A DNA stretch of 63,131 nt, counting the filler, from Folioceros fuciformis (Eukaryota), in the NCBI GenBank assembly GCA_049999805.1. It is 8 parts of 8 records of this genome, joined end to end, with 100 filler letters (N's around TTAATTAATTAA, not from the genome) between each part and the next. Parts side by side here need not be neighbours in the genome. Positions count along the whole stretch, not along the records: positions 1 to 16,109 come from JBNGIO010005141.1; 7 more parts are not named here. One strand, given 5' to 3'. Of the stretch, positions 5,157 to 54,169 are shown in pieces. Numbering within the stretch: the stretch's first letter is position 1; each line of letters opens with the position of its first letter. Both the position numbers and the translations under genes were made by a program. The notes beneath the pieces were generated by a model. The model was not told where the DNA came from and did no database searches. It saw only the letters and a program-made list of their open reading frames with translations.

Positions 5157-6892
5157 CCCTGCTCCAGAACCGACCCTAAGACGTTCCACATGCCATAGGT
5201 TGCCCCCATACCAATGGTTAGAACCTTATTACTAGTCACTCAGACTTTCGCACGTCTTCAGCAGTCTTTGGTGCTACTCAAAACATCCTTCCTGCTAAGG
5301 AACCCCTATCCTACAAGGAAGCCCTTCGAGGCCCGGAGTTGCTCCAAGTGGCAGGCAGCAATGGAGGAAGAATACCAGTCTCTGCTCAAGAACAAGACCT
5401 GGCAAATCGTTGACCTCCCACTTGGACGCAAAGCCATATCCTGTAAGTGGGTTTTTAAACTTAAACTCAATGCTCAAGGGGAGATTGCTAGATACAAAGC
5501 TAGGTTGGTGGCAAGAGGCTTCACCCAGGTTGAGGGCCTGGACTACCAGGAAACATCCTCAACCTGGACTACCAGGAAACATTCTCACCTATCATTTGAG
5601 CACAGTCCATTCGCACACTGCTGGCACTTGCAGCAAAGTTGGACCTCGACCTACAGCAAATGGACGTATGCACTGCTTACCTCTATGGAGACCTGGATGA
5701 AGACCTGTATATGGCACAGCCTGAAGGATATGAAGATCGTGAACAACCCACTTAAGTACTTAAACTACTTAAGTGCATATATGGACTAAAACAAAGCGGC
5801 AGAATATGGTATATCACCATGCATATTTACCTACTGAATATCTCCTTCGTTCAAAGCACAGCAGACTCCAATGTCTACCGGCTCAGCCGAGGAAGCAGCT
5901 TCGTTATATTGGCTTTATACGTTGACGATGTTATCCTCGTCACAAATAGTAACACGTTGTTAGTTGAGGTTAAGCAAAAACTCAGCACTAAGTTCGAGAT
6001 GAAAGACATCGGAGAACTTAAATACTGTTTGGGAGTACAGATTTTAAGAGTACGAGAGGAAGGTTTGCTGATAGTTCACCAGCACAAATACATCAGTGAT
6101 ATTCTGCACAAGTTTAAACTTGACAAAGCCAGACCCTCAACTACCCCCTATGCTATGGGTGTGAAGCTTACCAGTCTCCAGTGCCCATAGTCTCAGGAAG
6201 AAGTCGAGGACATGAAAGGTGTCCCCTACAGGCATGCAGTCTACAGCTTGATCTTCTTAGCCAACTGGACAAGGCCAGATATCCAATACTCTGTAAGTAC
6301 AGTATCTCAGTTCCTGGAAAATCTAGGAAGAGCCCTCTAGGCCGCTATCAAGCGTATTTTCTGCTATCTCAAAGGAACCCACAAGTATGGCCTCTTCTAT
6401 CGAAGGATTGGACAACCAAAACTTACCCTTAGGGGATTCATAGATGCTGGCTGGGCGTCGGACAACGACTCCAAGAAAAGCCTCTCCACATACTGCTTCG
6501 TGAACTGGTCGTGTAAGAAGCAATCTTCTATAGCCCTGTCATCCACAGAAGCAGAATACAAATCATTGACAGATGCTTCAAAGGAGGCTGAATGGGAAAG
6601 GACTTTCCTCCATGATCTCGACCAGACCCAGCAGACACCTACCCCTATCATGTGTGATAACATATCAGCCTTAGCCCTTGTTGCCAACCCACGTTTCCAT
6701 GCCCGCACTAAACACATAGAAATACAGCATCACTATATTAGAGACGTGGTGGAGCGCGGAGTTGTGAAAGTAGGTTATGTGCATACACATTCTAATGTCG
6801 CAGATGTGCTAACAAAAGGACTAGCAAAGCATAAACACTACCAGCACCTTTCAGGGCTAGGCCTGGATGATTATACAAAGTACTTCAGATGA
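5157..6892 (+). pseudogene. Copia element D: RT and RNase H remnant
   Basis: CKWVFKLK, RYKARLVARGF, LYVDD, SSTEAEY, RTKHIE; several stops and frameshifts; related to G and H. Confidence 0.95.
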
Positions 6893-6991
6893 CTTATCTA
6901 GGGTTGTGGGGGTGGGGCGGGAACCCGAAGGTTCCCTAGGAAATGGTGTTGTGCCTGCAATCTTCCTTGAAGGCGCACAGGAGCTGCAAAC

Positions 6992-7255
6992 TGCTGAGAA
7001 TAGGTGTTGATTTATTAGGGTTCAGTAATGTTAGCATTTATATTATGTTTGTATAGGGTTATTATGATTATCATTTTATTACCCCTTCATTAAGAGTCAT
7101 GTCCCTTGGTGTAAGGTTATGTCTCTTCACAACAACTTAAGTTGAGTGAGCCACTTTAACAAAGTTCTCTTATTATAATATTCTCTTTATCTCTTTATCT
7201 TTGTAATTGTTTATTATAGTAGTTGGTCTACACCAATCTGATCCAATATTTGTCA
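6992..7255 (+). repeat. 5' LTR of copia element B (start at 6992 or 7005)
   Basis: Ends TTTGTCA immediately before the PBS; resembles the LTR at 34088-34337 in reverse complement. Confidence 0.75.
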
Positions 7256-7267
7256 TGGTATCAGAGC
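7256..7267 (+). promoter_or_regulatory. Primer-binding site, tRNA-iMet (element B)
   Basis: TGGTATCAGAGC. Confidence 0.95.
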
Positions 7268-7615
7268 CATGCTTTGGTATAGGCTGCATTAATAAGAATG
7301 CACATTAAATTCTGCACATTTTGATGTGCAGATGGATGAATTTGGTTATTGTATTTTGTTGTTGTTTTCTTTTAAAAAAATGTTTTAAAAACATATCAAG
7401 AAAATATTTTATAGTTTTTCTTTGGATTTTATTTTAAAAATTTGCATTTCTAGGAGTTTGTTCTAGAGCATCTATTGACATATTGCATCTTTGCATTCTG
7501 TCTATAGGCGCGCTAGAAAAACTGCCAGAATTGGCAAAAATTCTATTATAGAATCATATACAAAAATTTTAAAATGTTTCTTGATACACAATAAAATACA
7601 AGATTGGTCAAATGA

Positions 7616-8323
7616 ATGGCCAATTTGATGGACGGGCAGCAATGGCGGCCATGCCCTATTGAGCGCAATCGTCAGAGGGATGTCTACAGAAGACAATTTG
7701 CACAAGAGGACAGGCCAACAGTTGCTAAATCACTCTACCAGCAAACCCTGGAGTGGATTCTTCAAACTCAAGATCAGCCTGAGCGCACTTGCATTATAAG
7801 GGAGTCGTATAATAATCTTCTTGATGCTATCTTCCCTCAACAAAGTCACCTGTCGCTTGCTCAACCACCCAAAAATCCTACTAATCTTCCATTTGTCGGA
7901 AATGGTAACCCTAGAGGTTTTCTGACCACACACATTTTACCACATGTTAGTGTGTCACAATTAAATGCTAGAATAGAAACACATCAACAACATGTTGATG
8001 AGCGTTTTCAGAGCATTTGTCACAAACTTGCTTCAGTCATTGTTGACTTACAAGAATTGAAGGAACAAATAGGACATTTGGATTTTAAGTTACTAACCTT
8101 ATTAGAACCTACCTTGCTTGCAAATCCTGCTCTTAGAGGGGTTGCATGCAAGCGTGCAAATAAGAAATATAACTTACACTTCTTCGATGCTCCAAATTCC
8201 TGTCCTTCTTGCTCTACCTATGCATTTAACAGATGGGAGATTAGAAATCAAAGGATTTCACATCTAGCTGCAAACCAATCTGCCATCTTGCCTATGGTAG
8301 ATTACTTTGCAAACCCTTTGTAG
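7616..8323 (+). CDS. ORF0 of element B, 235 aa, unknown function (coiled-coil-like segment, CPSC motif)
   Basis: Open ATG-TAG frame between PBS and gag; colinear protein similarity to 14965-15698. Confidence 0.8.
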   Translation: MANLMDGQQWRPCPIERNRQRDVYRRQFAQEDRPTVAKSLYQQTLEWILQTQDQPERTCIIRESYNNLLDAIFPQQSHLSLAQPPKNPTNLPFVGNGNPRGFLTTHILPHVSVSQLNARIETHQQHVDERFQSICHKLASVIVDLQELKEQIGHLDFKLLTLLEPTLLANPALRGVACKRANKKYNLHFFDAPNSCPSCSTYAFNRWEIRNQRISHLAANQSAILPMVDYFANPL

Positions 8324-8482
8324 ATAGGGCTGTTGCTGGAGCCTATTTAAGATGCAACAGTAGCATCTTACTGCTCCCCTCTTTTCTCTATTACCAGGAT
8401 TGTGTACCTTGTCAGGATAGGTCATAGATCTGCACACAGCCAACATCCTAACAGTTAGGACAGGATTTTCAGAATCCTAAAA

Positions 8483-9257
8483 ATGGCTAACACCACTAAT
8501 CTAAGTGGTGACGGGTTTAAAGAGAAAGACCGGTTTGGGGGGACAGATTATGACATTTGGGTCATGCGTATGCGTGGAGCCTTGCAAAATAAAAGACTAT
8601 GGAAGATAACTACTGGAGAGGAATTACTCCCTGGCTCTTCTTCTCCTAAAGTTACCCCTTCCTCTGCTGAGTCTAGATACCAAGAGGCTTGGTACATTAA
8701 GGATGAAGCTGCAATGTATTTAATAAGAAGTGGACTAACCTCTAATATGCTTAGACAGACTTCTGGATGCAAAACATATGTTGAGATTTGGTCCAGACTA
8801 CAAGATTTGTATGCAGGAGTTAATACCACTAGTCAGATGACTACTCTTAAAAATATACAAAATTGTAGAATGAGAGAGGGGGATACAGTTGAAAAACATA
8901 TTGCGCACTTCAGAACACTTGTTTCTAAATTAGAAAGTGCTTCTCAGGAAATTCTCAATGACGAAATACTTACCTTGTATTTTATGATGTCTCTTCCTGA
9001 CTCTTGGTCACATTTTGTAACCTCATATAATGCTTCTTAGCTTCAGGCTGCTAAGATTGCTAAAGCTGCAAATGTCACTATTCCATAGAAAACATTTTCA
9101 GAGTTAGTGGGAGCTCTTCTTCAAGAAGAAGCAACAAGAGCTCAGAATAAGCGTGTTAGCAAGTAGCAGGCTCTTTACACCACAAACAGAAACAAAGGCG
9201 CAAGTCCTAACTTTAAAGGTAGACAAAATACCTTTCAAGGTGCTGGTAGCTCACGGC
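8483..9257 (+). pseudogene. Copia B gag, with in-frame TAG stops, truncated by insertion of element C
   Basis: FKEKDRFGGTDYDIWVMRM, SLPDSWSHFV, LVGALLQEE. Confidence 0.9.
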
Positions 9258-9472
9258 TGACAATTTTATAAGGATAATGCAGATTTTATTATTATTTTTT
9301 TAAAAGAAGTTAAAATAAAATTGGGATGTGTCTTTTCGCTAAGAGTCGTAACCCTAATGAAGAGGTATTTAACTTAAACCATGTATAGACCTAAGATATA
9401 TATGTTATCTAAATAGCTAACCCTAGGTTACTTAACATGTCGATAACATAACATCGCTTTTATACTTCATCA
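9258..9472 (-). repeat. 3' LTR of element C
   Basis: TG...CA on the minus strand, following PPT AAGTGGGAG. Confidence 0.85.
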
Positions 9473-9719
9473 CTCCCACTTGTTGAGAGCGTGTTAAGTA
9501 CAGTCTTCTGGTATTCCTTGTGCTTGGTTCCTCGTGGGCGTAAAGCCTCTCGAGCTTCAGTCCTTCCCAGCTGCCAACTCTGATTGCTAGTGGCTGGTGC
9601 AATGGAGTGTGAGAATGAGATGCCCCTTACAACCAGGTACGCCTGGTACATAATGACAGCTTACGCTGTCATTGTGCTTCATTTCAAGATTCTAGCTGTG
9701 GAGAAGAGCACTCGCAGCT

Positions 9720-10310
9720 ATGTCTTCTGCTACGACCCCCTCTGATGACGCCCCTCGGAGGCCTCGGGCTTACCATCGTGATGCCCTTGGACGTTTCTCA
9801 GCTAGAACACCTGCTACAGGAGGACGCCACGAACTTGCTGATACTGCTGCCAGGGGTTCCTGCTCATCTCGGCGTCCAAGAGGAAGGCCGCCAGGGCGGC
9901 GTGGCAGAGGAAGGGGCAGGGGCTCGAACGCCGCTGCTGCACCGGACATGGGCGCACCCTCGCGAGGCGCTCCACATGCTAACAGTCCCCGAATTGCAGC
10001 TACAGAGCGCCGGTTTGGTAACGGCGAGTACGCCTACTCTAATTGTGGGGCTTTGCCTCCTATGTCGTTCCACTTTCAACCAATCAGAGACTACAACGAG
10101 GAGACGAAGGTGGTCTGTCCAGGGAATATGAAGCATCCTGGATCGCCACTATGGTATCGCTGCAGTGTGACAGGCTATATCCTGAGACGCGTTAAAGTCA
10201 CCATGTGCAGGGAGTATCCCGCACACGCGGTCAGCTTTTACAGTGAGTGTCTTCAGACACCATGTTTTTCCATAGCCCTGATTACGTTTCTTGTGCTCCC
10301 ACTCGCTTGA
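9720..10310 (+). CDS. Antisense ORF of element C, 196 aa (AT-hook-like RRPRGRPP, RG-rich, Cys-containing domain)
   Basis: ATG-initiated ORF between PPT and the pol stop, on the opposite strand to pol. Confidence 0.6.
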   Translation: MSSATTPSDDAPRRPRAYHRDALGRFSARTPATGGRHELADTAARGSCSSRRPRGRPPGRRGRGRGRGSNAAAAPDMGAPSRGAPHANSPRIAATERRFGNGEYAYSNCGALPPMSFHFQPIRDYNEETKVVCPGNMKHPGSPLWYRCSVTGYILRRVKVTMCREYPAHAVSFYSECLQTPCFSIALITFLVLPLA

Positions 10311-10546
10311 GAATTCCTGACAATCACATGTTGTTGCCTCTTGTAGGGACTGACACCCGGCTGAGGGAGGAGGAGCGTCTCGAATCTGAAGAGCGTATCT
10401 CTTATCAGGAGAGGAGGAGACGTAACAGTCCTCTTGAGGGCGAGAGCTTCACCACATCTGAAGAGCTGAACTCTGAAGATTCTGAAGAAAGAGAGAACAA
10501 CACCGATGACTCTGAAGATGAAGCGAGCTTCAACTGGGATCCTTAG
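10247..10546 (+). CDS. Acidic ORF segment, probably the frameshifted C-terminus of the antisense ORF
   Basis: E/D/S-rich (SEELNSEDSEERENNTDDSEDE); overlaps the previous ORF in another frame; stops 23 nt from the pol stop. Confidence 0.5.
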   Translation: MSSDTMFFHSPDYVSCAPTRLRIPDNHMLLPLVGTDTRLREEERLESEERISYQERRRRNSPLEGESFTTSEELNSEDSEERENNTDDSEDEASFNWDP

Positions 10547-10569
10547 GGCTAGGATTTCCTTTTTGCTGT

Positions 10570-13500
10570 TCAGACTTTGCTGCTAAGGAAGTCTTGCGAC
10601 CTCCCAAGTCCCATACTTTGCATATGTCTGTTGTGGAGTTCACGGCCTAGGGCCTTTTTTAAAATATCTGCTGGGTTGTCTGTGGTTGGCACGTAGTCCA
10701 GAGATATTTTTCCTGCTGTGACTTGTTCTCTAATGTAGTGGTACTCAACTTCCACGTGTTTTGTTCGTGAGTGGAAGATTGGATTCTTTGCTAGAGCCAT
10801 GGAACCCTGATTGTTTGTGTAGACTGTGGTACAGGTAGGTAGATCAATTCCCATTTCCTGGAAGAGTAACTTGCACCATACTATCTCCTTTGCTGCTGCT
10901 GTCAAGACCCTGTACTCTGCTTCTGTGCTTGATAGGGCCACAGTAGGTTGTTTCTTAGATGACCAGCATATGGGGCTGCCAGTATAAGAGATCACATATC
11001 CTGATACTGACTTCCTGGTGTCAATGTCTCCTGCATAGTCAGAATCTGTGAAGGTCTCTAGGTCTAGAGTCTTTCCTTCATGGTGCTCATATTTTAAACC
11101 TACGTCAAAGGTTCCTTTCAGATAACGAAACACTCGTTTCAGGCTCTGCCAATGTTCCTGTCCAGGTTGTTCCAGGAACTGTGATAAAACGCTTGTAGCA
11201 TAGGCTACATCGGGCCTTGTCGTGTTTGAGGCATAGATTAGTTTTCCTACGCCTTTCCTGTATGGCACCTTGGCCATTGCATCCTTTTCTGATTCTGTTT
11301 GTGGACACATTGACTTACTCAATTTAATTCCACTAGGTAAAGGTGTCGATGCTGGTTTTGCATCCTTGAGGCCCATTTGCTCTGCGCAATTCATGAGGTA
11401 TCTCGGCTGTGTCAAAGTAATCATTCTCCTTTTTCTGTCTCTTTGAATGTGTATTCCAAGACAACTTCTTAGAGGTCCGAGATTTGTCATCTCAAATTTT
11501 TGAGCTAACAGCTGGTTGAGCTTAGTAATGTAAGCTTCATTGTTGCAGGTGACAATCAAGTCGTCCACATAGACAGCAAGATAGCAGACTACGTCATCTG
11601 ATCTGTAAACGTACAAACTGCCATCTGCTTGACATTTTACAAAACCTAGAACACGCAGCTCCTCATCTAGGACTGCGTTCCATTCCTTAGCTGATTGCTT
11701 GAGCCCATACAGAGTTTTGATTAGCTTGAGGACATGGTCCTCCTTGCCTTTCACTTCATATCCTGGAGGCTGCTGCATATATATCTCTGTGTCTAATTTC
11801 CCATGTAGGAATGCTGTTTTAACATCAAACATTTCTAACTCATAGTCTTTGTGGGCTGCAACAGCACAGAGGATACGAAAAGTTGCCATCTTCACAACTG
11901 GAGCGAAGGTTTCCAGGTAATCTAGTCCTGGTACTTGTGAAAATCCTCGGGCTACGAGTCTAGCTTTATACCTGTCAAAGGTACCATCAGCTTTCACTTT
12001 GAGTTTGAAAATCCATTTACATGAGACCATTTTACGGCCTGGAGGTAACTTGGCTAGCTCCCAAGTTCCATTTTTAATCAAAGAGTCATATTCTGACTGT
12101 ATGGCCTTTTTCCATTCAGCAGCATCAGGTCGACTAAGTGCCTCCTCATATGACTGTGGCTCTATAGGATCCAGCAATAAAGAGGTGACATGTGCTGTCC
12201 GAAAATCATGTGACTGATAAAAATCTGGAGGATGTCTTTCACGCTGTGGGTAGCGTCGTTCAGGTTGAGCAGCAGGGAGTGCTGGCTGCAGAGGTGCCGA
12301 GTTGTCATGAGCTACCTGGTCAGCATCACCAGCTTCAACTTCAGCTACTGCGTCCTCCACATCTGAGTCCACATCAAGAGGTAAAGGATCGAGAGGATGT
12401 GGCTGCAGTACTGGATCAACAGCATCCCCAAAAACTGGTATAACGCGTGCCATGTCAGGTTCAAAATCAGGTGCTGGTGGATCCTCTTGTTCCCCACCTG
12501 CAGGAGCAACATCCTCAGGAAGATCCTCAAAGTATGATACATCCTGTTCAAGATGTTCCCAACTGTCATCCTCGAGAGCATAATTGTCTGAAGCTCCCAC
12601 TGGCCAGAAACGATTTTCATCAAAGGTAACGCTCCTGGAGTAGATGACATGATTGGCTGGCACATCATATAGCTTATATGCCTTGATGCCTTCAGTGTAA
12701 CCTAACATCAGCAATTTCTGGGCTTTGTTAAACAGCTTCTTGCGCTTCTCCCTGGGGACGAAGGCATACGCAACACAACCAAAAGTCCTCAAATGCAGGA
12801 TCTTGGGCTTGTGTCCATAGAAGGCTTCATAGGGAGTCATCCCTTCAACAGCACTAGTAGGCAACCTGTTCCTTAGGTAGACAGAGGTTGTAAGGGCTTC
12901 TGCCCAGTAGGACAGGGGGAGGTGAGCATGATTCAGCAAGGAAGATGTCATCTCCTGCAGAGTAAGATTCATATGCTCAGCCACCCCGTTCTGTTGAGGT
13001 GTGTAAACAACTGTAAGCTGCCTGGCAATTCCTTCATCTGTACAGAAGGTCTGAAAGTCATGTGAGGTAAATTCCCCACCGTTATCTGAACGCAGGGTTT
13101 TCAGCTGCTTCCCTGTCCAGCGTTCTGCAAACTTCAAGTAAGCTTTGAAATGTGAAAAGCATTCACTCTTGGCCTTGAGGATATAGGCACTAACAAAACG
13201 GGTTTTGTCGTCTGTAAAGGTAAGGAAGTATCTCCCACCACCGAGAGAAGGCTTTGACAAGGGGCCACATAAGTCTGTGTGCACCAACTCCAAGACTTCA
13301 GATGCCCTATGAGGAGCTTTATTTCTGAAAGCTGCTTGATGGCGCTTAGCAAGAACACAAGGTTCACAAAGAGGTAAAGGCACTAATTTGCCTATAGGGC
13401 CATCTGTATAGAGATCACTTACGGCTATCTTCTGTAACTTGCTGCTGTGTGGGTGACCTAATCTAGCATGCCACAACTTAGATTTGGCTATCTGTTGTGT

Positions 13501-14912
13501 AGAGGCTTGGGAGTCCTCATGTGTCAGATGGGACTGAACTGCACCTCTGGAGCTGTGAAGACGAAACAGGTCATGTTCTGAAGACCCATAAGCTAAAACC
13601 TTGCTAGGATTAAAAGCATCTATCACCTTACACTCTGTATGTGTGAAAAGTATGTGACTGTTATTGTCTATGTTCAGTCGCCTAACGGAGATGAGATTTC
13701 GTGTCATCTCAGGTACATAATACACGTCTAAGAGTGACAAAATAACTCCAGATGGCACAGGCAGCTGTACTGTTCCTATGCCTGGAGAGACAAGTGATCT
13801 ATTATCACCAAGATAGACGAATTGGTCCTTTACTGACCTGTAAGTCTGAAATGCGTTTCTATCAAAACACATGTGAGCAGTGGCACCTGTGTCTAAGTAC
13901 CACTCTGTCAATTGTTTAGCACTTGTTTTTGCTGACAGACATGTGGGTGCAGGGACAGAGTTTAGATACTGCCCTGTCTCAACCATAAGGGCTGATGGCG
14001 ATGGCTGCTTCTTGACCACAATGTTGGTCTCAGCGTTTCCCTCCTTGCGAGGTAAGCCAGCTTGCTTTTTTCTGCATTCTCGTTCCCAGTGTCCAGGGAT
14101 TTTGCACCAATTGCACACCCCTGGTTTCTTACTCTTCTTCTGCGCAGACTGTGTTGAGTGGCCTCCTTGCGAGCCACCACCTCGGGACGAACTAGATCCA
14201 CGGCCTCTGGAGTATGGCCTTGCGCCACCTCGCCCACGGTTGGATGTAAACAGCGCTTGCTGCTTGCCAGCACGCCTGCCTAGTCCTCCTCTGGTCGCCT
14301 CCTCTTCTAGGAGGGACCCAACAAGCTCTGCGAATGTTAATTCTGGTACCTTAAGACCAGCTGACTTAGCTAGCTTGGCTACCTGCAACTGGGATGCATG
14401 AATGGATGTCACAAAGTGTGACCAGGATGGGGGTAAGGAGAGCAACAAATAGAGTGTTAGCATCTCGTCCTTAATTGTCTCGCAAGTAGCATTTTCTAGC
14501 TTTGAGACTAATGTTCTGAATGTCATGACATGTTTTTCTACAGATTCTCCTTCACGCATCTTGCATTGCTGAAGGTTGCTAAGGGCTGACAGCTGATTTG
14601 CGGAGTTCTTTCCAGCATACAATTCTTCAAGACGACCCCAGATCTCTTCTGCTGTCTTACAGCCAGCAGTTTGTCGCATCATATCTGCTGTGAGGCCGCT
14701 CCTGATGAGGTACATGGTCGTGCCTCCCTTTGCTGTGAAGTTTCTCCTTCTTCTGGCAAGTCTGACCCTGTTGTGGTGTTCCAGAGTTTTCTGCTCTGGA
14801 GTGCGCCTTTCATGCGCATTACCCATATGTCATACTGACGACCGTCGAATCTGTCTTTTTCTTTAAAGCTTTCTCCTCCTCCAACAACTGATGAGGAAGC
14901 TGTGTCTCCCAT
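10570..14912 (-). CDS. Copia C Gag-Pol (gag, PR, IN, RT, RNase H) with one frameshift near 14720
   Basis: True start MGDTASS (14912). Motifs CNWCKIPGHWEREC, YLDTGAT, LVHTDLCGP, LRSDNGGEF, YVDD, STEAEY. Small deletion relative to B gag (AWYIKDEAAM). Confidence 0.95.
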
Positions 14913-14964
14913 TGCGGGAGGTATACAGAGGTGATGAGGCTACTGGCTACTACCAAGGACAGAT

Positions 14965-15698
14965 CTACAGGAGGGCAGCTAGCATGTTGACAGGTCTGAT
15001 AACCTCATGTAAGCTAGCTGATTGTTGTGCCTCCTTTTCTGCTATCTGTTCCTTCCTAATTGTGAACCTACTGTATGTGTAGGTTGCACATGATGGACAG
15101 GAGTTAGGATCATCAAAACGCTGATTTCCACTAGTGCACTTAATTGATCTTGTTGTAAAAGTGCGAGATTCAGGGTTTTGAGCAACTCAGGTTTCAGCAA
15201 AACATGGATTTTGTAATCCAAGTGGTAAAGTTGCTCCCTCAGATCCTGTAAGTCCACACTCACGCCTGCAATGCTTTTGTTCAGATTTACGTAGCGCCTG
15301 TCAACAAACAGGGCATGTAATTCTATTCTGGAAATGATCTGTGAAACTGTGGCTGGTGGTGCAGGCTGAGTTGTTAGGAAACCATTAGGGTTTCCATGCA
15401 CGTCCAGGGCGGGTCTGAGGCGCGGCTCCAGATGATTGGCTTCTGCTGCCTGCTCACGGGGATCAACAAACAGTTGCTGGTAGTCAGGATAGAGGGTAGA
15501 AACCAAGAAATTGTAAGCCTCCCGCAGTCGAGTGCAGTGGGCAGGCCGGTCCTGATTTCTCAACGTCCACTCTTGTGTCTGCCGGTGCAGGCGATCAGCA
15601 ACATTTCTGTCATTTAAGGGTCCCCTGAGAGATCGACTGCGCAGGTTGATGCGCTCAGCAGGTCGAGGCTGCCACATCTGGCCCTCGTTCTGTGCCAT
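14965..15698 (-). CDS. ORF0 of element C, about 244 aa after correcting a 1-nt frameshift in an A-run near 15178
   Basis: The shifted frame continues NPESR...FDDPNSCPSCATYTYSRFTIRKEQIA, matching B ORF0 FDAPNSCPSCSTYAFNRWEIRNQRIS. Confidence 0.8.
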
Positions 15699-16061
15699 CT
15701 GTGATGGCTTGTAATTTGGTTGTAAGAATGCTAATTTTATGCATTCTGTTCATTATTATTTCTCTATTTACATAGTAATTTGCACTATCTAGCAGGTGTT
15801 CTAGTGTAGTTCTATGAGAATTGTTATTGAAAAACAATCTGAATAGAATTGCACTAGAATACAGCTACTAGATCTGCAAATTAACAAATTGTAAATAAGC
15901 AAATAAAGAAACAACCAGAAAACTTAAGTTCTTGATTTTGTTTTTGGTTTCATTTCAAGAAAACATTCTTAAACATAAAACAACCAAAAACGCATGTTTG
16001 TGCGCATCCTAAGGTGCACAATTTTATGTGCATTCTCTAGAATGCAACCTGCATCATCACA

Positions 16062-16073
16062 GCTCTGATACCA
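16062..16073 (-). promoter_or_regulatory. Primer-binding site, tRNA-iMet (element C)
   Basis: TGGTATCAGAGC abutting the LTR CA. Confidence 0.95.
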
Positions 16074-16109
16074 TGACAATTTTATAAGGATAATGCAGAT
16101 TTTATTATT

Positions 16110-16209
16110 NNNNNNNNNNNNNNNNNNNNNNNNNNNNNNNNNNNNNNNNNNNNTTAATTAATTAANNNNNNNNNNNNNNNNNNNNNNNNNNNNNNNNNNN
16201 NNNNNNNNN
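16110..16209. other. Artificial contig spacer (also 30658-30757, 36730-36829, 42456-42555, 48793-48892, 55657-55756, 58857-58956)
   Basis: Identical 100-bp N44-TTAATTAATTAA-N44 six-frame-stop linker, seven times. Confidence 0.99.
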
Positions 16210-35268: not shown

Positions 35269-36729
35269 CTAAGCTGATGTAGATAGGGTTTCTGGACTGC
35301 TCTCGGAGCTGCCCATACCTAAACTTCTCATGTGCCTCACATGTATATCCCTAGTGAGGGATTTAGTAAAGATGTCAGTGGGGTTGTCTGCAGTTGGCAC
35401 GTACTCCAACGCTATCTGGTCAGATTTCACAAGGTCTCTGATGAAATGATATTCCACCTCCACATGCTTCGTGCGAGAGTGGAAAACAGGGTTCTGTGCT
35501 AAATTCATCGAGCCCTGGTTGTCAGTCTTTATGGTTGTGCAGGTAGGGAGTGGCAAACCAAGTTCCTTGAAGACTGATCTGCACCAAGCAATTTCCTTTG
35601 CTGCGGCGGTAAGCACTCGATACTCTGCCTCCGTGCTTGATGTAGCAACTGTTGGTTGCTTTTTACTGTACCAGCAGATAGGACCTCCTGCAATCATCAA
35701 CACGTACCTAGACACTGACCGCCTGGTATCCACATCTCCAGCGTAATCAGAGTCAGTGTACACATCAAGTTGTAGAGATGACCCAGGTACATATCTAAAA
35801 TTGATTCCCACATCTGCTGTGCCTTTGAGATACCTAACAACCCGTTTAACCCCTGTCCAGTGCAACTGTCCAGGGTTTTCCAGGTACTGTGAAAGCACGC
35901 TGGTGGCGAACGTTATGTCAGGTCTGGTAGTATTGGCTGCGTAAATAAGCTTACCAACACCCTTCCTGTAAGGGACTGCTGCCATCTGATCCTTTTCTTT
36001 CTGTGTTTCAGGACACATAGGCTTGCTGTACTTGAGTCCAGATCGTAACGGAGTGGCAGCTGGCTTAGCATCCTTTAAGCCAAGCTGTTCAGCACACTCA
36101 AGCAGATACCTAGGCTGAGTAAGTGAAATAGATTTCTGTTTCCTGTCACGTTTGATTAGCACTCCTAAACAGCTCTCAAGTGCTCCAAGATTTGTCATTT
36201 CAAACTTGGAGGCTAACAACTTGTTGATCTTTGTGATGAATGTAGGGCTGTTACAGGAGAGAATCAAGTCGTCAACATAAACTGCAAGGTAGCACACCAC
36301 ACCTCCGGATCTGTACACGTACAGGCTGTTGTCAGAGATACATTTAATGAAACCTAAAGCACGCAGTTCTTCATCAAGGACTGCGTTCCATTCCAGACCT
36401 GATTGCTTCAGCCCATACAAGGTTTTCTTGAGAAGTAAGACATGGTCTTCTTTTCCCTTTACTTCATAGCCTGTAGGTTGTTGCATATAGATTTCAGTGT
36501 CTAGTTTCCCATGTAGAAAAGCTATTTTGACGTCAAACATGTCTAACTCATGATCATGGTATGCTGCTAGGGCACAGATAATGCGGAAAGTAGCAAGCTT
36601 CATGACTGGAGCGTATGTTTCGAAATAGTCAAGTCCTGGCACTTGTGAAAACCCACGAGCAACAAGCCGTGCCTTGTATCGATCAAATGAGCCATCAGCT
36701 TTGACTTTCAGCTTGAAGACCCATTTGCA
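35269..36729 (-). CDS. Copia E RT-RNase H (5' partial at the contig edge)
   Basis: Uninterrupted frame with YGLKQS, YVDD, DSDYAGD, RTKHVEV. Confidence 0.95.
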   Translation of the reverse strand, partial: CKWVFKLKVKADGSFDRYKARLVARGFSQVPGLDYFETYAPVMKLATFRIICALAAYHDHELDMFDVKIAFLHGKLDTEIYMQQPTGYEVKGKEDHVLLLKKTLYGLKQSGLEWNAVLDEELRALGFIKCISDNSLYVYRSGGVVCYLAVYVDDLILSCNSPTFITKINKLLASKFEMTNLGALESCLGVLIKRDRKQKSISLTQPRYLLECAEQLGLKDAKPAATPLRSGLKYSKPMCPETQKEKDQMAAVPYRKGVGKLIYAANTTRPDITFATSVLSQYLENPGQLHWTGVKRVVRYLKGTADVGINFRYVPGSSLQLDVYTDSDYAGDVDTRRSVSRYVLMIAGGPICWYSKKQPTVATSSTEAEYRVLTAAAKEIAWCRSVFKELGLPLPTCTTIKTDNQGSMNLAQNPVFHSRTKHVEVEYHFIRDLVKSDQIALEYVPTADNPTDIFTKSLTRDIHVRHMRSLGMGSSESSPETLSTSA

Positions 36730-42792: not shown

Positions 42793-45700
42793 TTAGTGTG
42801 CAGTACCAACTTTGGTCACTACAGTAATGGACTTGAGACCTGCTGCTGCGGAGTGCTTGCCATGAGAAACTTTTGGGAGTGGCTTGGTCAAAAGATCCGC
42901 TATATTGTCACCTGTTGGAATATAGTGAACCTCAACCTCGCCTGTATCAGCAGCTTGTCTAATAAAATGATGCGTTATTTCAATATGCTTTGACCTCGCA
43001 TGAAATACCGGATTCTTAGAAAGTGCAATTGCTGATTGATTATCGCACCACATAGTTGTAGCCCCTGCTGGTAACTGTTGAATTCCTCTCAAAAAAGAGC
43101 GTATCCATATTACCTCTCTAGCAGCTTGAGACAAAGCTCCATACTCTGCTTCAGTAGATGAAAGGCAAATGGTAGACAGCTTCTTACTAGACCATGAGAT
43201 GGCTGACCCACCTAGTAGATTGCAGTATGCTGCTACACTTCTTCTACCATCTGGATCGCCAGCCCAGTCGGCATCGCAGTATGAAGTGAGCACCAAACCA
43301 TTAGGCTGCTTAGTATAGGTAAGTCCTAAACTAGAAGTTCCCTTGAGGTACCTAAAAATCCTTTTAACTGCCGTCCAATGGGCTTCCCCTGGGTTCTCTA
43401 AGAATTGGGATACACTATTAACAGCCCTAGAAATATCCAAGCGTGTCCAAGCAGCAAGATAAAGCAAACTACCCACTGCTTGTCTATAAGGACGTGTTGC
43501 CATCAAATCCTTCTCTGCTTGTGATGAAGGGCATTGCTCCTTAGAGAGTTTTTCACCCGTTGAGATAGGGGTAGAAACGGGGCGAGCATCAGCCATGTTA
43601 AACCGCTGCAAAAGCTGGCGAACAAAATGCTCCTGATGAATCTCTATGGTGTGCCTGTCTTCTGAAAAATGGAATTGCACACCAAGCGAGAAAGTAAGCT
43701 GGCCCAAATCAGTCATCTCAAAGCGGGAAAGAAGAACACCCTTAATCCTAGCCATTAATTGTGCTGATGTACAAAACAAGAAATTATCATCAACATAAAC
43801 GGTTAGGATAAGAAAGTTGTCTCCTTCCCACATAATAAATACACTATTATCTGCATCCAAACAAGTGAAACCCAACTCTACTAATAAAACATGAAAGGTT
43901 TCATTCCATGCTCTGCTAGACTGCTTGAGGCCATACAATGTCTTCAGCAACAAGCAAACTTTGTCCACATCAACTTCAAAGCCTTCGGGCTGGCACATAT
44001 AAATTTCTTCTTGCAAAGAACCATTAAGAAAAGCTGTTTTAACATCTAGCTGATGAACTAAGAGGCCATAATGAGCAGATAAAGCCAGCAAAATCCTTAT
44101 TGAAGTAGACTTTACAACTGGAGAAAAAGTCTCATTGTAATCAAGTCCTGCTACCTGGCTGTATCCTTTCGCAACTAGCCTTGCTTTATAGCGACCTATG
44201 CTGCCATCAGTATTAAGCTTTTTCTTAAATACCCATTTACAAGCAATTGGCTTACGACCTTTAGGCAAATCCACTAACTTCCAAGTTTGGTTTGCTATGA
44301 GAGAATCGTATTCTGACTTAATGGCCTTTTTCCATTGCTCAGCCTCAGGGCCTGTAATTGCTTCTTGATAAGTAGCGGGTTCAAAAGTATCAAAATTCTG
44401 ATCTGAAACGAGACCAGCTACAAAAGGTGGTTCAGACCATTCACTACGAGGTGGTCTATGGCGGGTAGATCTACGCAAAACTGATTCAGGTGTAGGCTCA
44501 ACTGGATCAGGTGTGGGCTCAGGATCAGTATCAAGAACAACAACAGGATCAGCTTCCACGGGTTCATGAAAGGAGGGAACTGCAAAAGACTCATCTATTT
44601 GAGAAGAAACAGGTGCTGGAAAAGTACTAGGAAGATGAGCTTGTGCATGTGAACTAGATGTTGTAGCCCCCCCTGAAGCCGAGGAAGGTGAATCCGAAAC
44701 ATCATCAATATCAAAAATAGAAACATCAACATCAGCATCAGTATTGTAATCAGCCAAATCATCCACGCCATTAATAGAAACAGTAGCATCAAAAGAAGTA
44801 GGATCCAAAGCAGCATCATGACGTCGGAGAAGAGCATTCTCATGAAAAACAACACTCCGAGAAATGGAAACTTGCCGAGTACTTGGATCAAAAAGCTTAT
44901 ATCCTTTTACCTCGTCCGAATAGCCAATGAAAATGCGGCGAACAGCTTTAGGATCAAGCTTACTCCGAAGTGCAGAAGGGATCAAGGCATATGCTGGTGC
45001 TCCAAAAATGCGTAGATGGGTGATCCTAGGCTTCTTCCCAGTCCAGCGCTCATAAGGGGTAACCAAACCAAGCTCCTTCGTAGGCAACCTGTTCTGCACA
45101 TAATTAGCTGCCATAAGGGCTTCAGCCCAATATCCCCTAGTGAGGCCTGCAAATGCTAAGCTGGAAAGAGTAGCCTCTTGAAGGGTCCTGTTCTTGCGTT
45201 CGGCGAATGCATTCTGAGCTGGAGTATAAGGAACTGTAAATTGATGAAGAACTCCCTCTCCAGCACAAAATTCGGTGAAGGCATTACTTGTATACTCGCC
45301 TCCATTGTCAGTCCTGAGAATCTTTAGCTGATGACCTGTCTGACGCTGAGCAGAAGCTAAATACGTTTGAAAACATGATAGGGCTTCACTCTTATGGGCA
45401 AGAACAAAAACTGTAGAATAGCGGCTCCATTCATCAATGAAAGTGATGAAATAAGATGCTCCACCAAAGGACATGGTCGACATGGGGCCACATATGTCAC
45501 TATGAACAGTGTGAAGAAGACAAGGTGCTCTTGACAAGTTTTGGTCTTTGAAAGGTTGTGAAATTGCCTTGCTCAATTGACAGGAGTCACAAAAGGCTCT
45601 ATTATCAAAAGAGAAAGACAAAGGATCTCTAAAAACGGAGTTATTGACTAAAGTGAAAAGCCTATTAAAATTCACATGCCCTAATCGGCAATGCCAAAGT

Positions 45701-47409
45701 TGAGTAGGAGAGAGACCAGAAGCTTGGGTAACGTTAGCAGTAGCATGTGGACTATACAAGGTTCTCACATTCAAAAGATACAAATCATGGAAAGGTGTCC
45801 CTGTGAAAAGGTCAGTTCCAATGTTGTTGCCAATAACTGAACAACCTGTATTGTCAAAACAAACTCTACAAGAGTGCTCCTCCGTGAGCTTCATAACTGA
45901 CATGAGATTCTTGGTCATGGATGGGACAAACAACACATCTGAGATTGTAAGAGAGGAACTACTAGGAAGCTGTATCTTTACTGATCCTATACCCTTAATG
46001 GATAAACCACTGTCATCACCCAAAAGAACAAACTGGTGATGAGCTGGGTTAGCATCAAAAGCAGTGAAAGCATTCCTATCAAAACAAATGTGGCTAGTTG
46101 CCCCAGAGTCGAGGAACCACATGTCATTCTGGATCTGGATAGAAGATAAGCAAACTGCTAAGATGGCGGGTGGTTTGGGCAGACCTTTGGACGTGGCTAC
46201 ATTAGAAGCTGGAAAGGAACTTGAACTTTCCTTCCGGGGCTCACCAGCCCTTTTCTTCCTACAGTCCTTCTCAAAATGACCTGGTATCTTGCACCAATTG
46301 CAAGTAAAAGTATGCCGTTGAAGGTTGGGCTGTCGAGAGGTTGACGCTCCTCCTCGTACTGAGCCCCCACGTCCTCTGCCACGATTGCCTCCGCGTCCTC
46401 TAGAAGCAAACAAAACTCTGCTACCTTGTTGCATAGTAGGCTTGGACTTGTGAAGGCTCCTACGGCGTTCTTCAGCAATCAAAGCTCCAAATATCTGCTC
46501 CAACGTCACATTGGCGCCAGGTCCAGCTGCTTGAAGAGTTGCATTCTGAGAACTGATAAACTGAGAATAACTATCAGGCAGGGATGCTAGAAAGGAAACA
46601 GCAGCTTGAAACTCAGTGAAGGTAGTCCCGCAATATGCAAGAGTCGCACGAGCTGTGCGAAATTTATTGATATAAGACTCAACAGTCTCATTATCCTTCA
46701 TGCGAATATTGAAAAAATCCCGATGCGCTAAAACAAGGGAAACAGAACTCTTATCTCTATAGATGAGTTTGAAGTTGTTCCAAACTGCTGCTGAAGTGTC
46801 AGCATCCATAGTGTGCGGCATCATGTTCCTGTCAAGGGATGCCAAAAGGATGGATCGGGCTCGCCTGTCCTTCCTTTGCCATGCAAGAATATCAGCAGCA
46901 TTTGCATTGTTGGCATGTGTTGCTGGTTTTGGTTCTGTCCCGTCCACAACGGACATGAGCTCATGCTCCTCCAAAATCTGGGTCAGCCTCATCGCCCAGA
47001 TGTGGTAATCATTACCATTAAAGCGATCCCTATCCTTGAATTCAATCTTCAAGGAACCTGGAGTGATCGCCATAGCTTGTGCAAAATTTGCAGCTTGACC
47101 AGTAGAAACTCCAACTCCAGCAGCAGGGTTGCCTGCTGTACCTGCAAGGGTGCTTGCGGAACCAGCAGGGTTGCCTGCTGTAGGAGAAGGAACACTACCT
47201 AAGCCTGGCCTAGGCTGTGTGGGATTGCCCCAAAAATTTCTCAAATAGTCAAAAGAGGGAGATGTGCCTTGCTGTTCATCAATACCAGTTGTGGGATTGA
47301 CAACAGGTGAAGTAGGTTCCTCTTGCAACTCCAATCTACCAAGGTCCACATCTTCGCCTTCATTAAATTCGCCAGACGCTGATGAGGGCGAACCTGGCTG
47401 CATGTCCAA
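42793..47409 (-). CDS. Intact copia Gag-Pol, 1538 aa
   Basis: CNWCKIPGHFEKDC, FLDSGAT, VHSDICGP, LRTDNGGEY, YVDD, DADWAGD in PR-IN-RT-RH order. Confidence 0.98.
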   Translation of the reverse strand: MDMQPGSPSSASGEFNEGEDVDLGRLELQEEPTSPVVNPTTGIDEQQGTSPSFDYLRNFWGNPTQPRPGLGSVPSPTAGNPAGSASTLAGTAGNPAAGVGVSTGQAANFAQAMAITPGSLKIEFKDRDRFNGNDYHIWAMRLTQILEEHELMSVVDGTEPKPATHANNANAADILAWQRKDRRARSILLASLDRNMMPHTMDADTSAAVWNNFKLIYRDKSSVSLVLAHRDFFNIRMKDNETVESYINKFRTARATLAYCGTTFTEFQAAVSFLASLPDSYSQFISSQNATLQAAGPGANVTLEQIFGALIAEERRRSLHKSKPTMQQGSRVLFASRGRGGNRGRGRGGSVRGGASTSRQPNLQRHTFTCNWCKIPGHFEKDCRKKRAGEPRKESSSSFPASNVATSKGLPKPPAILAVCLSSIQIQNDMWFLDSGATSHICFDRNAFTAFDANPAHHQFVLLGDDSGLSIKGIGSVKIQLPSSSSLTISDVLFVPSMTKNLMSVMKLTEEHSCRVCFDNTGCSVIGNNIGTDLFTGTPFHDLYLLNVRTLYSPHATANVTQASGLSPTQLWHCRLGHVNFNRLFTLVNNSVFRDPLSFSFDNRAFCDSCQLSKAISQPFKDQNLSRAPCLLHTVHSDICGPMSTMSFGGASYFITFIDEWSRYSTVFVLAHKSEALSCFQTYLASAQRQTGHQLKILRTDNGGEYTSNAFTEFCAGEGVLHQFTVPYTPAQNAFAERKNRTLQEATLSSLAFAGLTRGYWAEALMAANYVQNRLPTKELGLVTPYERWTGKKPRITHLRIFGAPAYALIPSALRSKLDPKAVRRIFIGYSDEVKGYKLFDPSTRQVSISRSVVFHENALLRRHDAALDPTSFDATVSINGVDDLADYNTDADVDVSIFDIDDVSDSPSSASGGATTSSSHAQAHLPSTFPAPVSSQIDESFAVPSFHEPVEADPVVVLDTDPEPTPDPVEPTPESVLRRSTRHRPPRSEWSEPPFVAGLVSDQNFDTFEPATYQEAITGPEAEQWKKAIKSEYDSLIANQTWKLVDLPKGRKPIACKWVFKKKLNTDGSIGRYKARLVAKGYSQVAGLDYNETFSPVVKSTSIRILLALSAHYGLLVHQLDVKTAFLNGSLQEEIYMCQPEGFEVDVDKVCLLLKTLYGLKQSSRAWNETFHVLLVELGFTCLDADNSVFIMWEGDNFLILTVYVDDNFLFCTSAQLMARIKGVLLSRFEMTDLGQLTFSLGVQFHFSEDRHTIEIHQEHFVRQLLQRFNMADARPVSTPISTGEKLSKEQCPSSQAEKDLMATRPYRQAVGSLLYLAAWTRLDISRAVNSVSQFLENPGEAHWTAVKRIFRYLKGTSSLGLTYTKQPNGLVLTSYCDADWAGDPDGRRSVAAYCNLLGGSAISWSSKKLSTICLSSTEAEYGALSQAAREVIWIRSFLRGIQQLPAGATTMWCDNQSAIALSKNPVFHARSKHIEITHHFIRQAADTGEVEVHYIPTGDNIADLLTKPLPKVSHGKHSAAAGLKSITVVTKVGTAH

Positions 47410-47419
47410 TATTCAAATA

Positions 47420-47854
47420 TTAAGAGCGGGGCGCACGTGGGCGTCCCGGTGAAAATAACCTAGCCTCATGCACACGCTTCTCCTCTTCAGTTGGAGTAGA
47501 CAGCAAAAATAATTGTTGAATTCCAGTTAGAAGAATAGAGAGAAAATCTTGTAAATTATGGATCTGATGAGATGCTTCCCTCAAATCAGCTTCAAGTTGT
47601 CGTTGTAGAAAACTACGAGAAAATAATGAAGGTGAATGATGAACAGGGCCTCGATTGGAAATACGTCTAATAAAACGTTGTGGTTGGCTGCTCATAAAAT
47701 GTTGTTGAAAGGTTCTTTCACAAGACGCCTTCAACTTGCAATCTAAACAAAAGAAGCCACGATCTGATCTGGGTGGCGGTGATGGTGGTGAGGCTTGAGG
47801 GTGAACTCTCCTCCACTGCGCACAAGAAGATGTCCTGCGCTTAGGCATCTTCAT
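47420..47854 (-). CDS. ORF0 of element F, 144 aa (zinc-finger-like motif plus coiled-coil-like segment)
   Basis: FFCLDC-x12-H; LQRQLEADLREASHQIHNLQDFL; stops 10 nt before the gag ATG. Confidence 0.55.
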   Translation of the reverse strand: MKMPKRRTSSCAQWRRVHPQASPPSPPPRSDRGFFCLDCKLKASCERTFQQHFMSSQPQRFIRRISNRGPVHHSPSLFSRSFLQRQLEADLREASHQIHNLQDFLSILLTGIQQLFLLSTPTEEEKRVHEARLFSPGRPRAPRS

Positions 47855-49198
47855 CCGCGTCTCAGCATCATCAATTATAGCAACATTGACAACTTGCTGT
47901 GTCTTTCACACGCCGCAGGCCATGGCTCCAAGCAATCGTGATGAAGCACGAAAATCGAAGGCACTCCTGCCCAGCATGTGACACCGGCCGCGAGGCGCAT
48001 CCATCCACCACCCGGCTACAAAACCTGGTTGTAAACACTCCGAAGTGGTGAAAATCAAAACTGGTCATGGCCGCAGTGGTGCCGACAGCGCCGCGATGGG
48101 GCTTGGAAGGCACAGGCGTGCAGATATCAGGCTGGCTTCTTCACCATCGTCTATCCACAGAAATCTTCACATCCAAAGAGCCTGTGGGTGCTCCAAACTA
48201 CAAACTGCGCCTCAGAGAGCGCCAACCGGATTGCATGCTAGGCGTCCCTGGTGGACGATTTGATTCAGGGCGCGTGCGACCATGGGGCTGTCATCTGCTC
48301 CCACTGCCCGGCTTCAAATTGCCATGCGAAGCCCTCCTTTTGTTGTACGCGCTTCAGGCCGCAGCATGCCGAAGGGAAATCACAAGACGAAATGCTGAGA
48401 TCGCACGCCGCGGACTGGAATTATCGTTGCAGGCTGCCTTCTCCATCCCTTGTACAGTTTCGAGTTGAGCCTTCAGGCCGAAGCAGCCATCTACCTCCTC
48501 GCGATTCTCCACACTTCATAAAATTAATAAAATAGGCATGAAAGCCACGTTTCTAATCACAATTTCAGATCGGGCAAGTGAGTCAAATCGATTGCCATGG
48601 CTCTGATACCATTTCGCATTGTGTGGATTGTGGGAGAGAGAGCACGGGAGCGAGAGCGCACGAGGCACGAAGGGCAAAGGTAGTTATCGTTGTATCAAAA
48701 AAGAATAAAAAAGAGTATATATGAGTATTTTAAAAGAGTAGTTTTAACTGATTATGAAACTACTAACCTAAACTAACATAATTTCCTTTACTNNNNNNNN
48801 NNNNNNNNNNNNNNNNNNNNNNNNNNNNNNNNNNNNTTAATTAATTAANNNNNNNNNNNNNNNNNNNNNNNNNNNNNNNNNNNNNNNNNNNNAGCCAAAC
48901 CCTAAAAACAGAAAGGTATATCTAAATATGATAAGTTAAGCATATGGCAGCTTAACCCGTAACACCCCCTCTTAAGCTCATAAGCTTAACTAACGAACAA
49001 TAAACAAGCCCGGCATCATCCTAAAGCAAACCCTTCGTAAACGAAAGCGGTACGCGATGCCACGTGAAGCTGCTCATAGCAGCTGGACGACTCAAACTCA
49101 TAACTTCACAGTCACGTTCCTGGCACTGTGCTTGAGTAGCGCCCAACAATCTCTGTACCGCGGCAGCCCGAAGAAGAATAAAACCAAGCGCTGGAGCC

Positions 49199-52700: not shown

Positions 52701-54169
52701 TGGTGTCGGAGGGTGCATAAATCAAGTCTATACAGATCATGATCTAATGTACCTTTAAATGCCAGCATTGAAGGCTCTGACCTCTTGTAGAAGAGACAAG
52801 TATCCTCACTAGCTGTCATGTCATATGCTCGAAGCTGCATCAGTTTGCTGAGAGAGACCAAGTTCTTCGCCATGGATGGCACATAGAGTACATTTTCCAG
52901 GGTAAAAATGGATCCATCGTGCAAAGTGAATTTACACATGCCACTGCCATGGATTTGGAGACTGGACTGATGTCGTTCATCTCCCAACAGCACTCTTTCA
53001 GCCATTCTGTTAGATTGCAGCACATAAAACTGATCTTTGCTTCTGTAGATGTGAGATGTGGCACCAGAATCCAAGTACCAACCATCTTCATCACATATGG
53101 AACGAGCAAGGCAGATTGTTAGGATCTTCACCACAGGTTTGGTGTCACCAGATGTCTTCTCCTTAATCGCAACAGTTGCAGAACTAGTTGAGCTTTTAGG
53201 AGCACGTTTAGGTTCCCCTGCCTTCTTTTTCTTGCATTCCCTGGCCCAATGTCCAGCTATACCACACCAATTGCAGTTGCCTAGACGTTTAGTTGGACCA
53301 GCGGAATCAGAACCTTGGCCAGGTTTACCTCCAACTTTTCCTTTGCCTTTGAATGATTTGGGAGCTGTGAATAATGCCTTCTCCGTTCTAATTTTAGAAG
53401 TGTTTGAAGAAAACATCCGGCTTTGCTCCTCCTGATACAAAGCGCCTATGACATCCTCTAATGTGATGTTTGCAGCACTTCCAGCAGCAGCAGCAACATT
53501 CGCAGCTCTCAAGGGTCCATTCTGGCTAGTAACAAAGGATTGGTACGATGAAGGGAGTCTCGCGAGGAGTTCAGCCACAGCATCTACTTCCTCCATCTTC
53601 GTACCAGATAGAGAAGCCATCTGGGCTCTAAGGTGACGGAATTTACTTGTGAAAGCCGCTACCTTATCCCCCTCTTTCATCCTCAAGGCATAAAACTCAT
53701 ACTTAACACCAACAAGGGTCAGTACATTTGTAGCCTTGTATGTCTTCTCCAGTTGTGTCCAGATTTCAGAAGCTTTGTCGAGAAACTCGACCTGGGAAAT
53801 GAGGTCAGTATGCAATCCTGCTATTAGTAGAGCAATTGCAATGTTGTTCAATTCATCCCACTCAGCGATCTGATCTGCAGATGGTGCTGGAGTTGCATTG
53901 GGGTCGGGCTGGGGGGTAGTCCCATCCACTATTTTCCAGACACGTCGGGCTAACAAGATGGACTTCATCCGGATACGCCAGACAGCGTAGTGTGAGCCGT
54001 TAAACCGATCTTTTTCTTTCAGCTCTGACGTGTATGTGGGTTTAACTACTGTAGACATGATTGCTGGAGTATTCTGGTTATGGATTGCAGCGGTTACAAA
54101 CTGTCCAAGACTAAGTGCTTGAAACAAGCTACTTAAGGTATCCACAGATAAGAGGGGTCCTGTGGACAT
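49718..54169 (-). CDS. Copia G Gag-Pol with a single in-frame TAA at 51449-51451
   Basis: The two ORFs share a frame; readthrough gives DEEPDPPLRRSTR...NTWKLV. Confidence 0.95.

Follow-up and report, generated by a model that had tools for sequence, protein, structure and literature searches.

A probable retrotransposon gene between the primer-binding site and gag in two diverged Ty1/copia elements of Folioceros fuciformis

We analyzed a stretch of 63,131 nucleotides (nt) from the Folioceros fuciformis assembly GCA_049999805.1 (hereafter the window, filler letters included), in which two Ty1/copia long terminal repeat (LTR) retrotransposons, B and C, each carry one long sense open reading frame (ORF) between their primer-binding site (PBS) and gag. 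The proteins encoded by these two ORFs, which we call ORF0, are about 235 amino acids (aa) long. We consider it probable that ORF0 is a real retrotransposon protein gene, a sense additional ORF that was already present in the ancestor of B and C and has been kept by purifying selection. That it is, or once was, a functional protein encoded by the element is very likely. B and C themselves would share a common ancestor and now be deeply diverged.

Homology and coding constraint of ORF0

The initial annotation had described ORF0 as a protein family common to B and C, and BLASTP, tblastn and an end-to-end alignment agree on this point. BLASTP of the 235-aa stop-to-stop ORFs gave 66/171 identities (39%, E = 1e-31). 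A tblastn search extended the similarity by matching B residues 174-228 to C positions 15150-15001 in another frame (43.6% over 55 aa), with a joint E of 4e-34. All the motif pairs listed in that annotation were present in the alignment, namely GQQWRP/GQMWQP, QTLEW/QTQEW, RESYN/REAYN, GNPRGFLTT/GNPNGFLTT, VDLQELKEQIGHLDFKL/VDLQDLREQLYHLDYKI and FDAPNSCPSCSTY/FDDPNSCPSCATY. The 1-nt slip postulated for the C copy was also recovered. By three-frame translation, this break of one base falls within an A-run, at a point between 15189 and 15150; beyond it the tblastn match goes on in another frame and includes FDxPNSCPSCxTY. Public contigs of two runs, X1 and X2, span 14779/14790-16100 with 0 gaps and 2 other letters each. 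Because these contigs align there without gaps, the break in C ORF0 is also present in them, although they may derive from the same sample as the window assembly.

The position of ORF0 is shared as well as its sequence. In B the PBS starts at 7256, ORF0 occupies 7616-8323 and the gag ATG is at 8483; the corresponding minus-strand positions in C are 16073, 15698-14965 and 14912. The ORF0 start codon is base 349 after the PBS in B and base 364 in C, and both the start and the end of ORF0 are kept between the two lineages.

To describe coding constraint we used a protein-anchored codon alignment of the two ORF0 copies covering 216 codons. Identical bases were found at 132, 128 and 87 of the 216 first, second and third codon positions, respectively (Fisher p = 1.8e-6). 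The uncorrected proportions of nonsynonymous (pN) and synonymous (pS) differences were 0.384 and 0.746, giving a pN/pS of 0.51 (bootstrap 0.43-0.62), and reading this nucleotide alignment in the two remaining frames gave 1.31 and 1.15. Synonymous and nonsynonymous divergence are thus clearly unequal, and third positions are far less kept than the first and second, as the earlier proposal of purifying selection on ORF0 had predicted. This frame-specific pattern in the two aligned sequences is the mark of a protein under purifying selection. For gag of the same pair pN/pS was 0.33; judged by these ratios, ORF0 is somewhat more relaxed than gag and evolves faster. No further ORF of at least 80 codons overlaps ORF0 in either element, and the 235 codons of the B copy are open while the adjacent gag holds three stops.

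Within the window the family is confined to B and C. Of the 1486 six-frame ORFs in the window that reach 25 aa, a profile built from both copies picked out only B and the two C pieces; the hit ranked after these had E = 0.42. Five other copia elements in the window have a PBS, and a tblastx comparison of their leaders with those of B and C and among themselves gave a leader match for B and C only; the tblastx matches of the leaders of elements D, E and H fall at the gag start. The leader ORFs of the five other elements had no Pfam match.

Carrier elements and the 5′ leader

The window consists of eight contigs artificially joined by N44-TTAATTAATTAA-N44 linkers, and adjacency across the joins is not real. 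Both ORF0 copies lie on the first contig (1-16109), which is a nest of Ty1/copia elements: C sits inside the gag of B, which it interrupts at 9257. The features of B and C and the joins are as follows.

7005-7255, plus strand: 5′ LTR of element B, ending ...TTTGTCA directly before the PBS; this end is firm
7256-7267, plus strand: PBS of element B, TGGTATCAGAGC, identified by motif count
7268-7615, plus strand: leader of element B, with two hairpins shared with C and 8 upstream ATGs
7616-8323, plus strand: ORF0 of element B, 235 aa, intact
8483-9257, plus strand: gag of element B, with its own ATG and 3 in-frame stops, cut by the C insertion
9258-9293, minus strand: last 36 nt of the 3′ LTR of element C, the same as the 36 nt preceding the C PBS
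10570-14912, minus strand: gag-pol of element C (gag, protease, integrase, reverse transcriptase, RNase H; 7 Pfam families arranged as in copia), with a frame break near 14716 in the window
14965-15698, minus strand: ORF0 of element C, frame broken once (between 15189 and 15150)
15699-16061, minus strand: leader of element C, with 11 upstream ATGs
16062-16073, minus strand: PBS of element C, TGGTATCAGAGC, identified by motif count
16074-16109, minus strand: remnant of the 5′ LTR of element C, cut by the contig end, with the linker from 16110
16110-16209 and six further places, no strand: artificial contig joins, recognized by paired 44-N runs around TTAATTAATTAA

B and C are Ty1/copia (Pseudoviridae) LTR retrotransposons by their domain order, LTRs and PBS. 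The PBS 12-mer TGGTATCAGAGC, which we take to be complementary to the initiator tRNA-Met, occurs in the window in seven exact copies and one copy with a single mismatch, against 0.40 expected by chance, and in both B and C it directly follows an LTR end in ...TGTCA. From the LTR end into the leader the two elements are 69% identical over 246 nt. The start of the B 5′ LTR at 7005 is uncertain, the B 3′ LTR being outside the window. The two LTR ends of C are identical in 36/36 letters; the inner LTR boundary of C is not determinable, as its 5′ LTR leaves the contig.

The long gag-pol frame of C comprises 1419 codons (14829-10570, minus strand), and its Pfam families follow the copia order Retrotran_gag_2, Pol_BBD, gag_pre-integrs, rve, SH3_retrovirus and RVT_2. 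The N-terminus of C gag (ATG at 14912) is in a different frame from this long frame. At 14716 the X1 and X2 public contigs depart from the window, at full depth, by an indel of 19 letters, and those of a third run, X3, by a different indel; the frame break there may reflect either misassembly or copies that differ. B shows Retrotran_gag_2 only, the remainder being cut off, and this profile is matched from its position 1 (E = 1.8e-25); the start of B gag is DUF4219-like at a score below the cut-off. Between the gag proteins of B and C, tblastn gives 57.9% identity over 183 aa, and the codon alignment 59% over 239 codons.

For the carriers, the nearest gag-protease relatives share 24-36% identity (8 proteins at E ≤ 1e-20), and among the best 120 reverse transcriptase-RNase H relatives listed, identity was 31-49%, with hits from plants, oomycetes, an arachnid and metagenomes. 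To judge from these identities, the carrier lineage is thinly sampled.

The non-coding leader between the PBS and ORF0 is conserved too. It is 58% identical between B and C, compared with 45.4 ± 2.8% (maximum 53.4%) in 100 shuffles, and its first 60 nt are 71% identical. Two hairpins just 3′ of the PBS are kept in B (7285-7302 and 7311-7332) and in C (in the region 16045-15997), the second with one compensatory pair between the elements. The hairpin region is probably a cis-acting RNA element for priming, dimerization or packaging. One could therefore propose that ORF0 is no gene at all and that the similarity of B and C reflects cis-acting RNA or DNA conservation of the leader, with the ORFs open by chance; the excess of leader identity over shuffled sequences and the conserved hairpins would fit such a proposal. 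The leader shows no codon periodicity that could account for ORF0, whereas only the ORF0 frame has the third-position deficit (p = 1.8e-6), pN/pS being above 1 in each of the other two. The 235-codon frame of B has moreover stayed open beside a gag with three stops, and the heptad pattern described below is conserved. We regard chance ORFs in a conserved leader as extremely unlikely.

The same stretch of DNA bears on whether ORF0 could be an N-terminal extension of Gag, joined to it by splicing, readthrough or frameshifting as in some retroviruses. ORF0 is on the same strand directly 5′ of gag, in B it is even in the same frame, and pyrimidine-rich AG sites precede the gag ATG in both copies. 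Against a fusion, B has two intervening stops (8321-8323 and 8456-8458) and in C the frames of ORF0 and gag differ. The spacer between ORF0 and gag is poorly conserved and differs in length, measuring about 160 nt in B against about 50 nt in C, gag matches its Pfam profile from position 1 at its own ATG, and a conserved splice donor was not seen. An extended Gag is accordingly a very unlikely explanation of ORF0. Programmed frameshifting at the break in C ORF0 was also considered and rejected: no canonical slippery heptamer was seen near the break, and B has no break.

Three levels of nesting may be present in this contig. The C-terminus of the pol of another copia element, 40% identical to that of C, ends at 6892 within 5292-7255, with the B 5′ LTR and PBS following within about 110 nt. 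B seems to have landed just 3′ of that pol.

Predicted protein, relatives and interpretation

The ORF0 protein is hydrophilic, with a grand average of hydropathy of -0.5 and an isoelectric point of 8.8 for B and 9.2 for the 170-aa N-terminal piece of C. No transmembrane segment was found, the best 19-residue Kyte-Doolittle mean being 1.04 for B and, for the two C pieces, 0.83 and 0.74. The earlier statement that ORF0 is not env-like therefore holds, both for lack of a membrane segment and for its position 5′ of gag. The env-like class of ORFs was rejected on the same grounds, ORF0 having a maximum hydropathy of 1.04 and not lying between pol and the 3′ LTR.

AlphaFold2, given a three-row alignment, predicted an all-helical structure: helices at residues 14-72, then disorder over 73-112, then a long helix (113-163) and additional ones C-terminally. 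The long helix comprises 51 residues with a predicted local distance difference test score (pLDDT) of about 64-74. Over 35 residues it contains five heptads in which 10/10 a and d positions are hydrophobic, from residue 125 in B and from residue 131 in C. These are homologous places in the two copies, and the heptad score was reached by 0/500 shuffles. The predicted layout of ORF0 is an Arg-rich helical N-terminus, a variable Pro-rich linker ending in GNPxGFLTT, the amphipathic helix with its five heptads, and a C-terminal part in which C-x(12-17)-CPSC precedes a basic helix; the modelled product would be soluble, mildly basic and all-helical.

An oligomerizing coiled coil had been suggested for this protein. 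The coiled-coil part is borne out by the heptads at the sequence level and by the low-confidence helix. For self-association, a predicted homodimer of residues 100-235 scored 0.06 against a mark of 0.32, a result that weighs neither for nor against binding. We put a coiled-coil oligomer at an even chance. Three cysteines are kept in B and C in the pattern C-x(12-17)-C-P-S-C, and no fourth conserved metal ligand is visible in the two-sequence alignment. The CxxC metal binding suggested in the initial annotation would depend on these three, and the functions it suggested (particle assembly, RNA chaperoning or anti-silencing) are conjectural. A zinc finger or zinc knuckle was rejected, as only three cysteines are shared and there is no Pfam match; a fourth ligand may come from another chain.

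Neither ORF0 copy matched any Pfam family at E ≤ 1; a match to a gag N-terminal or host domain was what the initial annotation had named as speaking against its reading. A comparison of ORF0 with the gag-pol of its own carrier by hhalign gave a probability of 0.12%. A gag N-terminal domain (DUF4219 or Retrotran_gag_2) was thus rejected for want of a profile match, and gag carries those domains itself with a complete N-terminus. Among PDB sequences the best match was U1A at only E = 0.12. A word-indexed search of 5.8 billion proteins returned 107 candidates, none at E ≤ 0.01, and a HMMER profile found 0 of 1.84 billion representative proteins at E ≤ 0.001. The best score in the ESM Atlas was 0.81, within the range of shuffled proteins. 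Two degenerate motif scans of metagenome contigs returned 0 and 0 hits, and viral contigs, searched by protein and by motif, 0. These blank searches may be partly due to the thin representation of such genomes in the libraries.

Public contigs of the same organism gave further copies, with 7-9 contigs per run overlapping B ORF0 at a likeness of at least 80%. ORF0 is thus present in two elements whose gag is only 58-60% identical and in these further contigs, which argues against a one-off transduction. In run X4, which we guess to be RNA, 8/30 bins were covered, with almost nothing on ORF0. In one X4 contig the match is limited to 8219-8253; hand translation of its loose ends keeps the frame and gives PNSCPSC once more. 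This contig is a possible lead to a third, diverged ORF0 member and not proof of expression. Over 7000-16100, nearly all differences between the X3 contigs and the window are C>T (457) or G>A (668) changes, a pattern that is the signature of a bisulfite-converted library.

The absence of likeness to gag-pol or to any retroelement domain, together with the faster evolution of ORF0 than of gag (pN/pS of 0.51 versus 0.33), would also be expected of a passenger, a fragment from a host gene or some other mobile element that the B/C ancestor took up on a single occasion and that plays no part in transposition. LTR retrotransposons are documented to capture host sequences, according to the part of a review that deals with it (Vicient & Casacuberta 2020, PMC7264820), and we counted this for the passenger. 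The profile search of 1.84 billion proteins revealed no host-like homologue, and ORF0 occupies the same place in both lineages with its start and end conserved. Frame-specific constraint would be unexpected for a sequence that has no function, given the nearly saturated synonymous sites. We therefore consider a functionless passenger quite unlikely.

Several observations weigh against a retained, functional ORF0. The two full ORF0 sequences (n = 2) come from one organism, and no relative was found in any library searched, hence there is no independent phylogenetic support. Synonymous sites between B and C are near saturation (pS = 0.75), which makes a corrected ratio of nonsynonymous to synonymous rates unreliable, and confidence in the structural model is low (mean pLDDT 52.6). 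Neither copy in the window is intact in every gene: ORF0 of C is frame-broken, and gag of B has three stops and is interrupted. C otherwise looks young, with 36/36 LTR letters identical, yet its ORF0 is broken, also in the public contigs; either the element can perhaps do without the C-terminal part of the protein, or this copy is perhaps dead. Finally, ORF0 is preceded by 8 upstream ATGs in B and 11 in C, with many more inside ORF0. Because upstream ATGs are so numerous, ORF0 and gag are beyond the reach of simple scanning, and reinitiation, shunting, internal entry or a spliced RNA would therefore be needed.

If ORF0 is nevertheless a gene of the element, the full-length RNA of the element itself would serve for its translation as a cistron 5′ of gag, and the protein would self-associate via the heptad helix, with the cysteine cluster possibly holding a metal within or between chains. 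It would then act as a non-enzymatic accessory factor on the RNA or particle of the element, being neither an enzyme nor an envelope protein. A specific role as a particle- or RNA-associated helper is a tentative assignment, and a doubtful one. A different role, on the host or on element dosage, would make ORF0 a suppressor of RNA silencing or a regulator of copy number. Its fast evolution relative to gag suits a protein that interacts with the host, and viral accessory genes offer an analogy, which is otherwise all that speaks for it; no likeness to known suppressors was seen in the Pfam, PDB or profile searches. We regard this role as unlikely.

Additional ORFs of plant LTR retrotransposons occur on either side of gag-pol, mostly between pol and the 3′ LTR; those located upstream are noted with reference to a Ty3/gypsy survey, at least in the pertinent part of one review (Vicient & Casacuberta, PMC7264820). 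The ORF0 of Retrosat2/FRetro3, Ty3/gypsy elements of rice and its relatives, is placed between the 5′ LTR and gag-pol in the portions of the descriptions that concern it (Gao et al. 2012, PMC3485330; PMC4093653), and the former portion presents it as an orphan outside its element family that diverges faster than the polyprotein (PMC3485330). On these partial descriptions, the ORF0 of B and C is similar in being sense, 5′ of gag, free of an assignable function or outside homologue and more divergent than the polyprotein. It differs in that Retrosat2 is a Ty3/gypsy element with LTRs of more than 3 kb, whereas B and C are Ty1/copia elements with short LTRs; the two were compared by description and not by sequence. 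Another example is ORF1 of the Tat/Ogre lineage of Ty3/gypsy, a sense ORF upstream of gag that is conserved within the lineage. It is alike in its 5′ sense position and differs in belonging to giant Ty3/gypsy elements, the likeness again being one of description.

Within Ty1/copia, the env-like ORFs of Sireviruses such as SIRE1 and ToRTL1 are described, in the relevant parts of two papers, as additional sense ORFs between pol and the 3′ LTR with transmembrane segments (PMC4093653, PMC7264820). As far as those parts go, they share with ORF0 the copia host and the sense orientation, whereas ORF0 of B and C is 5′ of gag and has no transmembrane segment. In other element classes, LINE-1 ORF1p and the virion-associated protein of caulimoviruses are coiled-coil, nucleic-acid-associated proteins encoded upstream of polymerase or capsid genes. 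They resemble ORF0 in gene position, coiled coil and basic C-terminus, by analogy only.

Ty1/copia elements are usually drawn as gag-pol only. Since ORF0 lies between the PBS and gag on the sense strand, it has the features of a 5′ sense additional ORF, and on sequence grounds it is best read as a lineage-specific one, of a type earlier described for Ty3/gypsy and here found in copia with an apparently orphan coiled-coil protein. No description of a 5′ extra ORF in a Ty1/copia element was found in the literature searched, supplements excluded, and the arrangement is probably unreported. A selected orphan 5′ gene in copia would show that this superfamily, too, gains accessory genes. It would also pose a translation problem, namely the expression of gag-pol behind an upstream cistron of 235 codons, and would offer a small, tractable protein for probing the roles of accessory genes.

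A more far-reaching proposal is that B and C belong to an undescribed "three-gene" Ty1/copia clade in which ORF0 is an essential orphan coiled-coil protein. It would pair by its heptad helix and by a metal site shared at CPSC, for which the zinc hook is an analogy, and would link Gag particles to genomic RNA or protect the element against silencing. We think this improbable. If true, ORF0 would be the first functional 5′ accessory gene described in Pseudoviridae.

Other features of the window

A pol fragment at 35302-36729 (minus strand), cut by a contig end, is 73% identical to the pol of C and represents a third member of the B/C lineage, the 5′ part of which is outside the window. In C, about 1.1 kb of GC-rich sequence (9453-10569) separates the pol stop from the short 3′ LTR. 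This region contains antisense ORFs of 170 and 204 aa (9619-10131 and 9696-10310), one of them with an RG-rich stretch. It was considered as a second conserved extra gene and rejected: the 3′ region of the 73%-identical pol fragment bears no similarity to it, and Pfam gave no match.

Two other copia elements, at 42793-48611 and 49748-55473 (minus strand), are about 38% identical to the C polyprotein and have 1.6-1.7 kb between the PBS and the start of gag homology. Their leader ORFs of 161 and 219 aa match neither ORF0 nor each other nor Pfam. Long coding-looking leaders may be common among the copia elements of this genome. The window also contains a full-length U1 spliceosomal RNA gene at 56953-57111 (minus strand; 124.8 bits, E = 4e-31).

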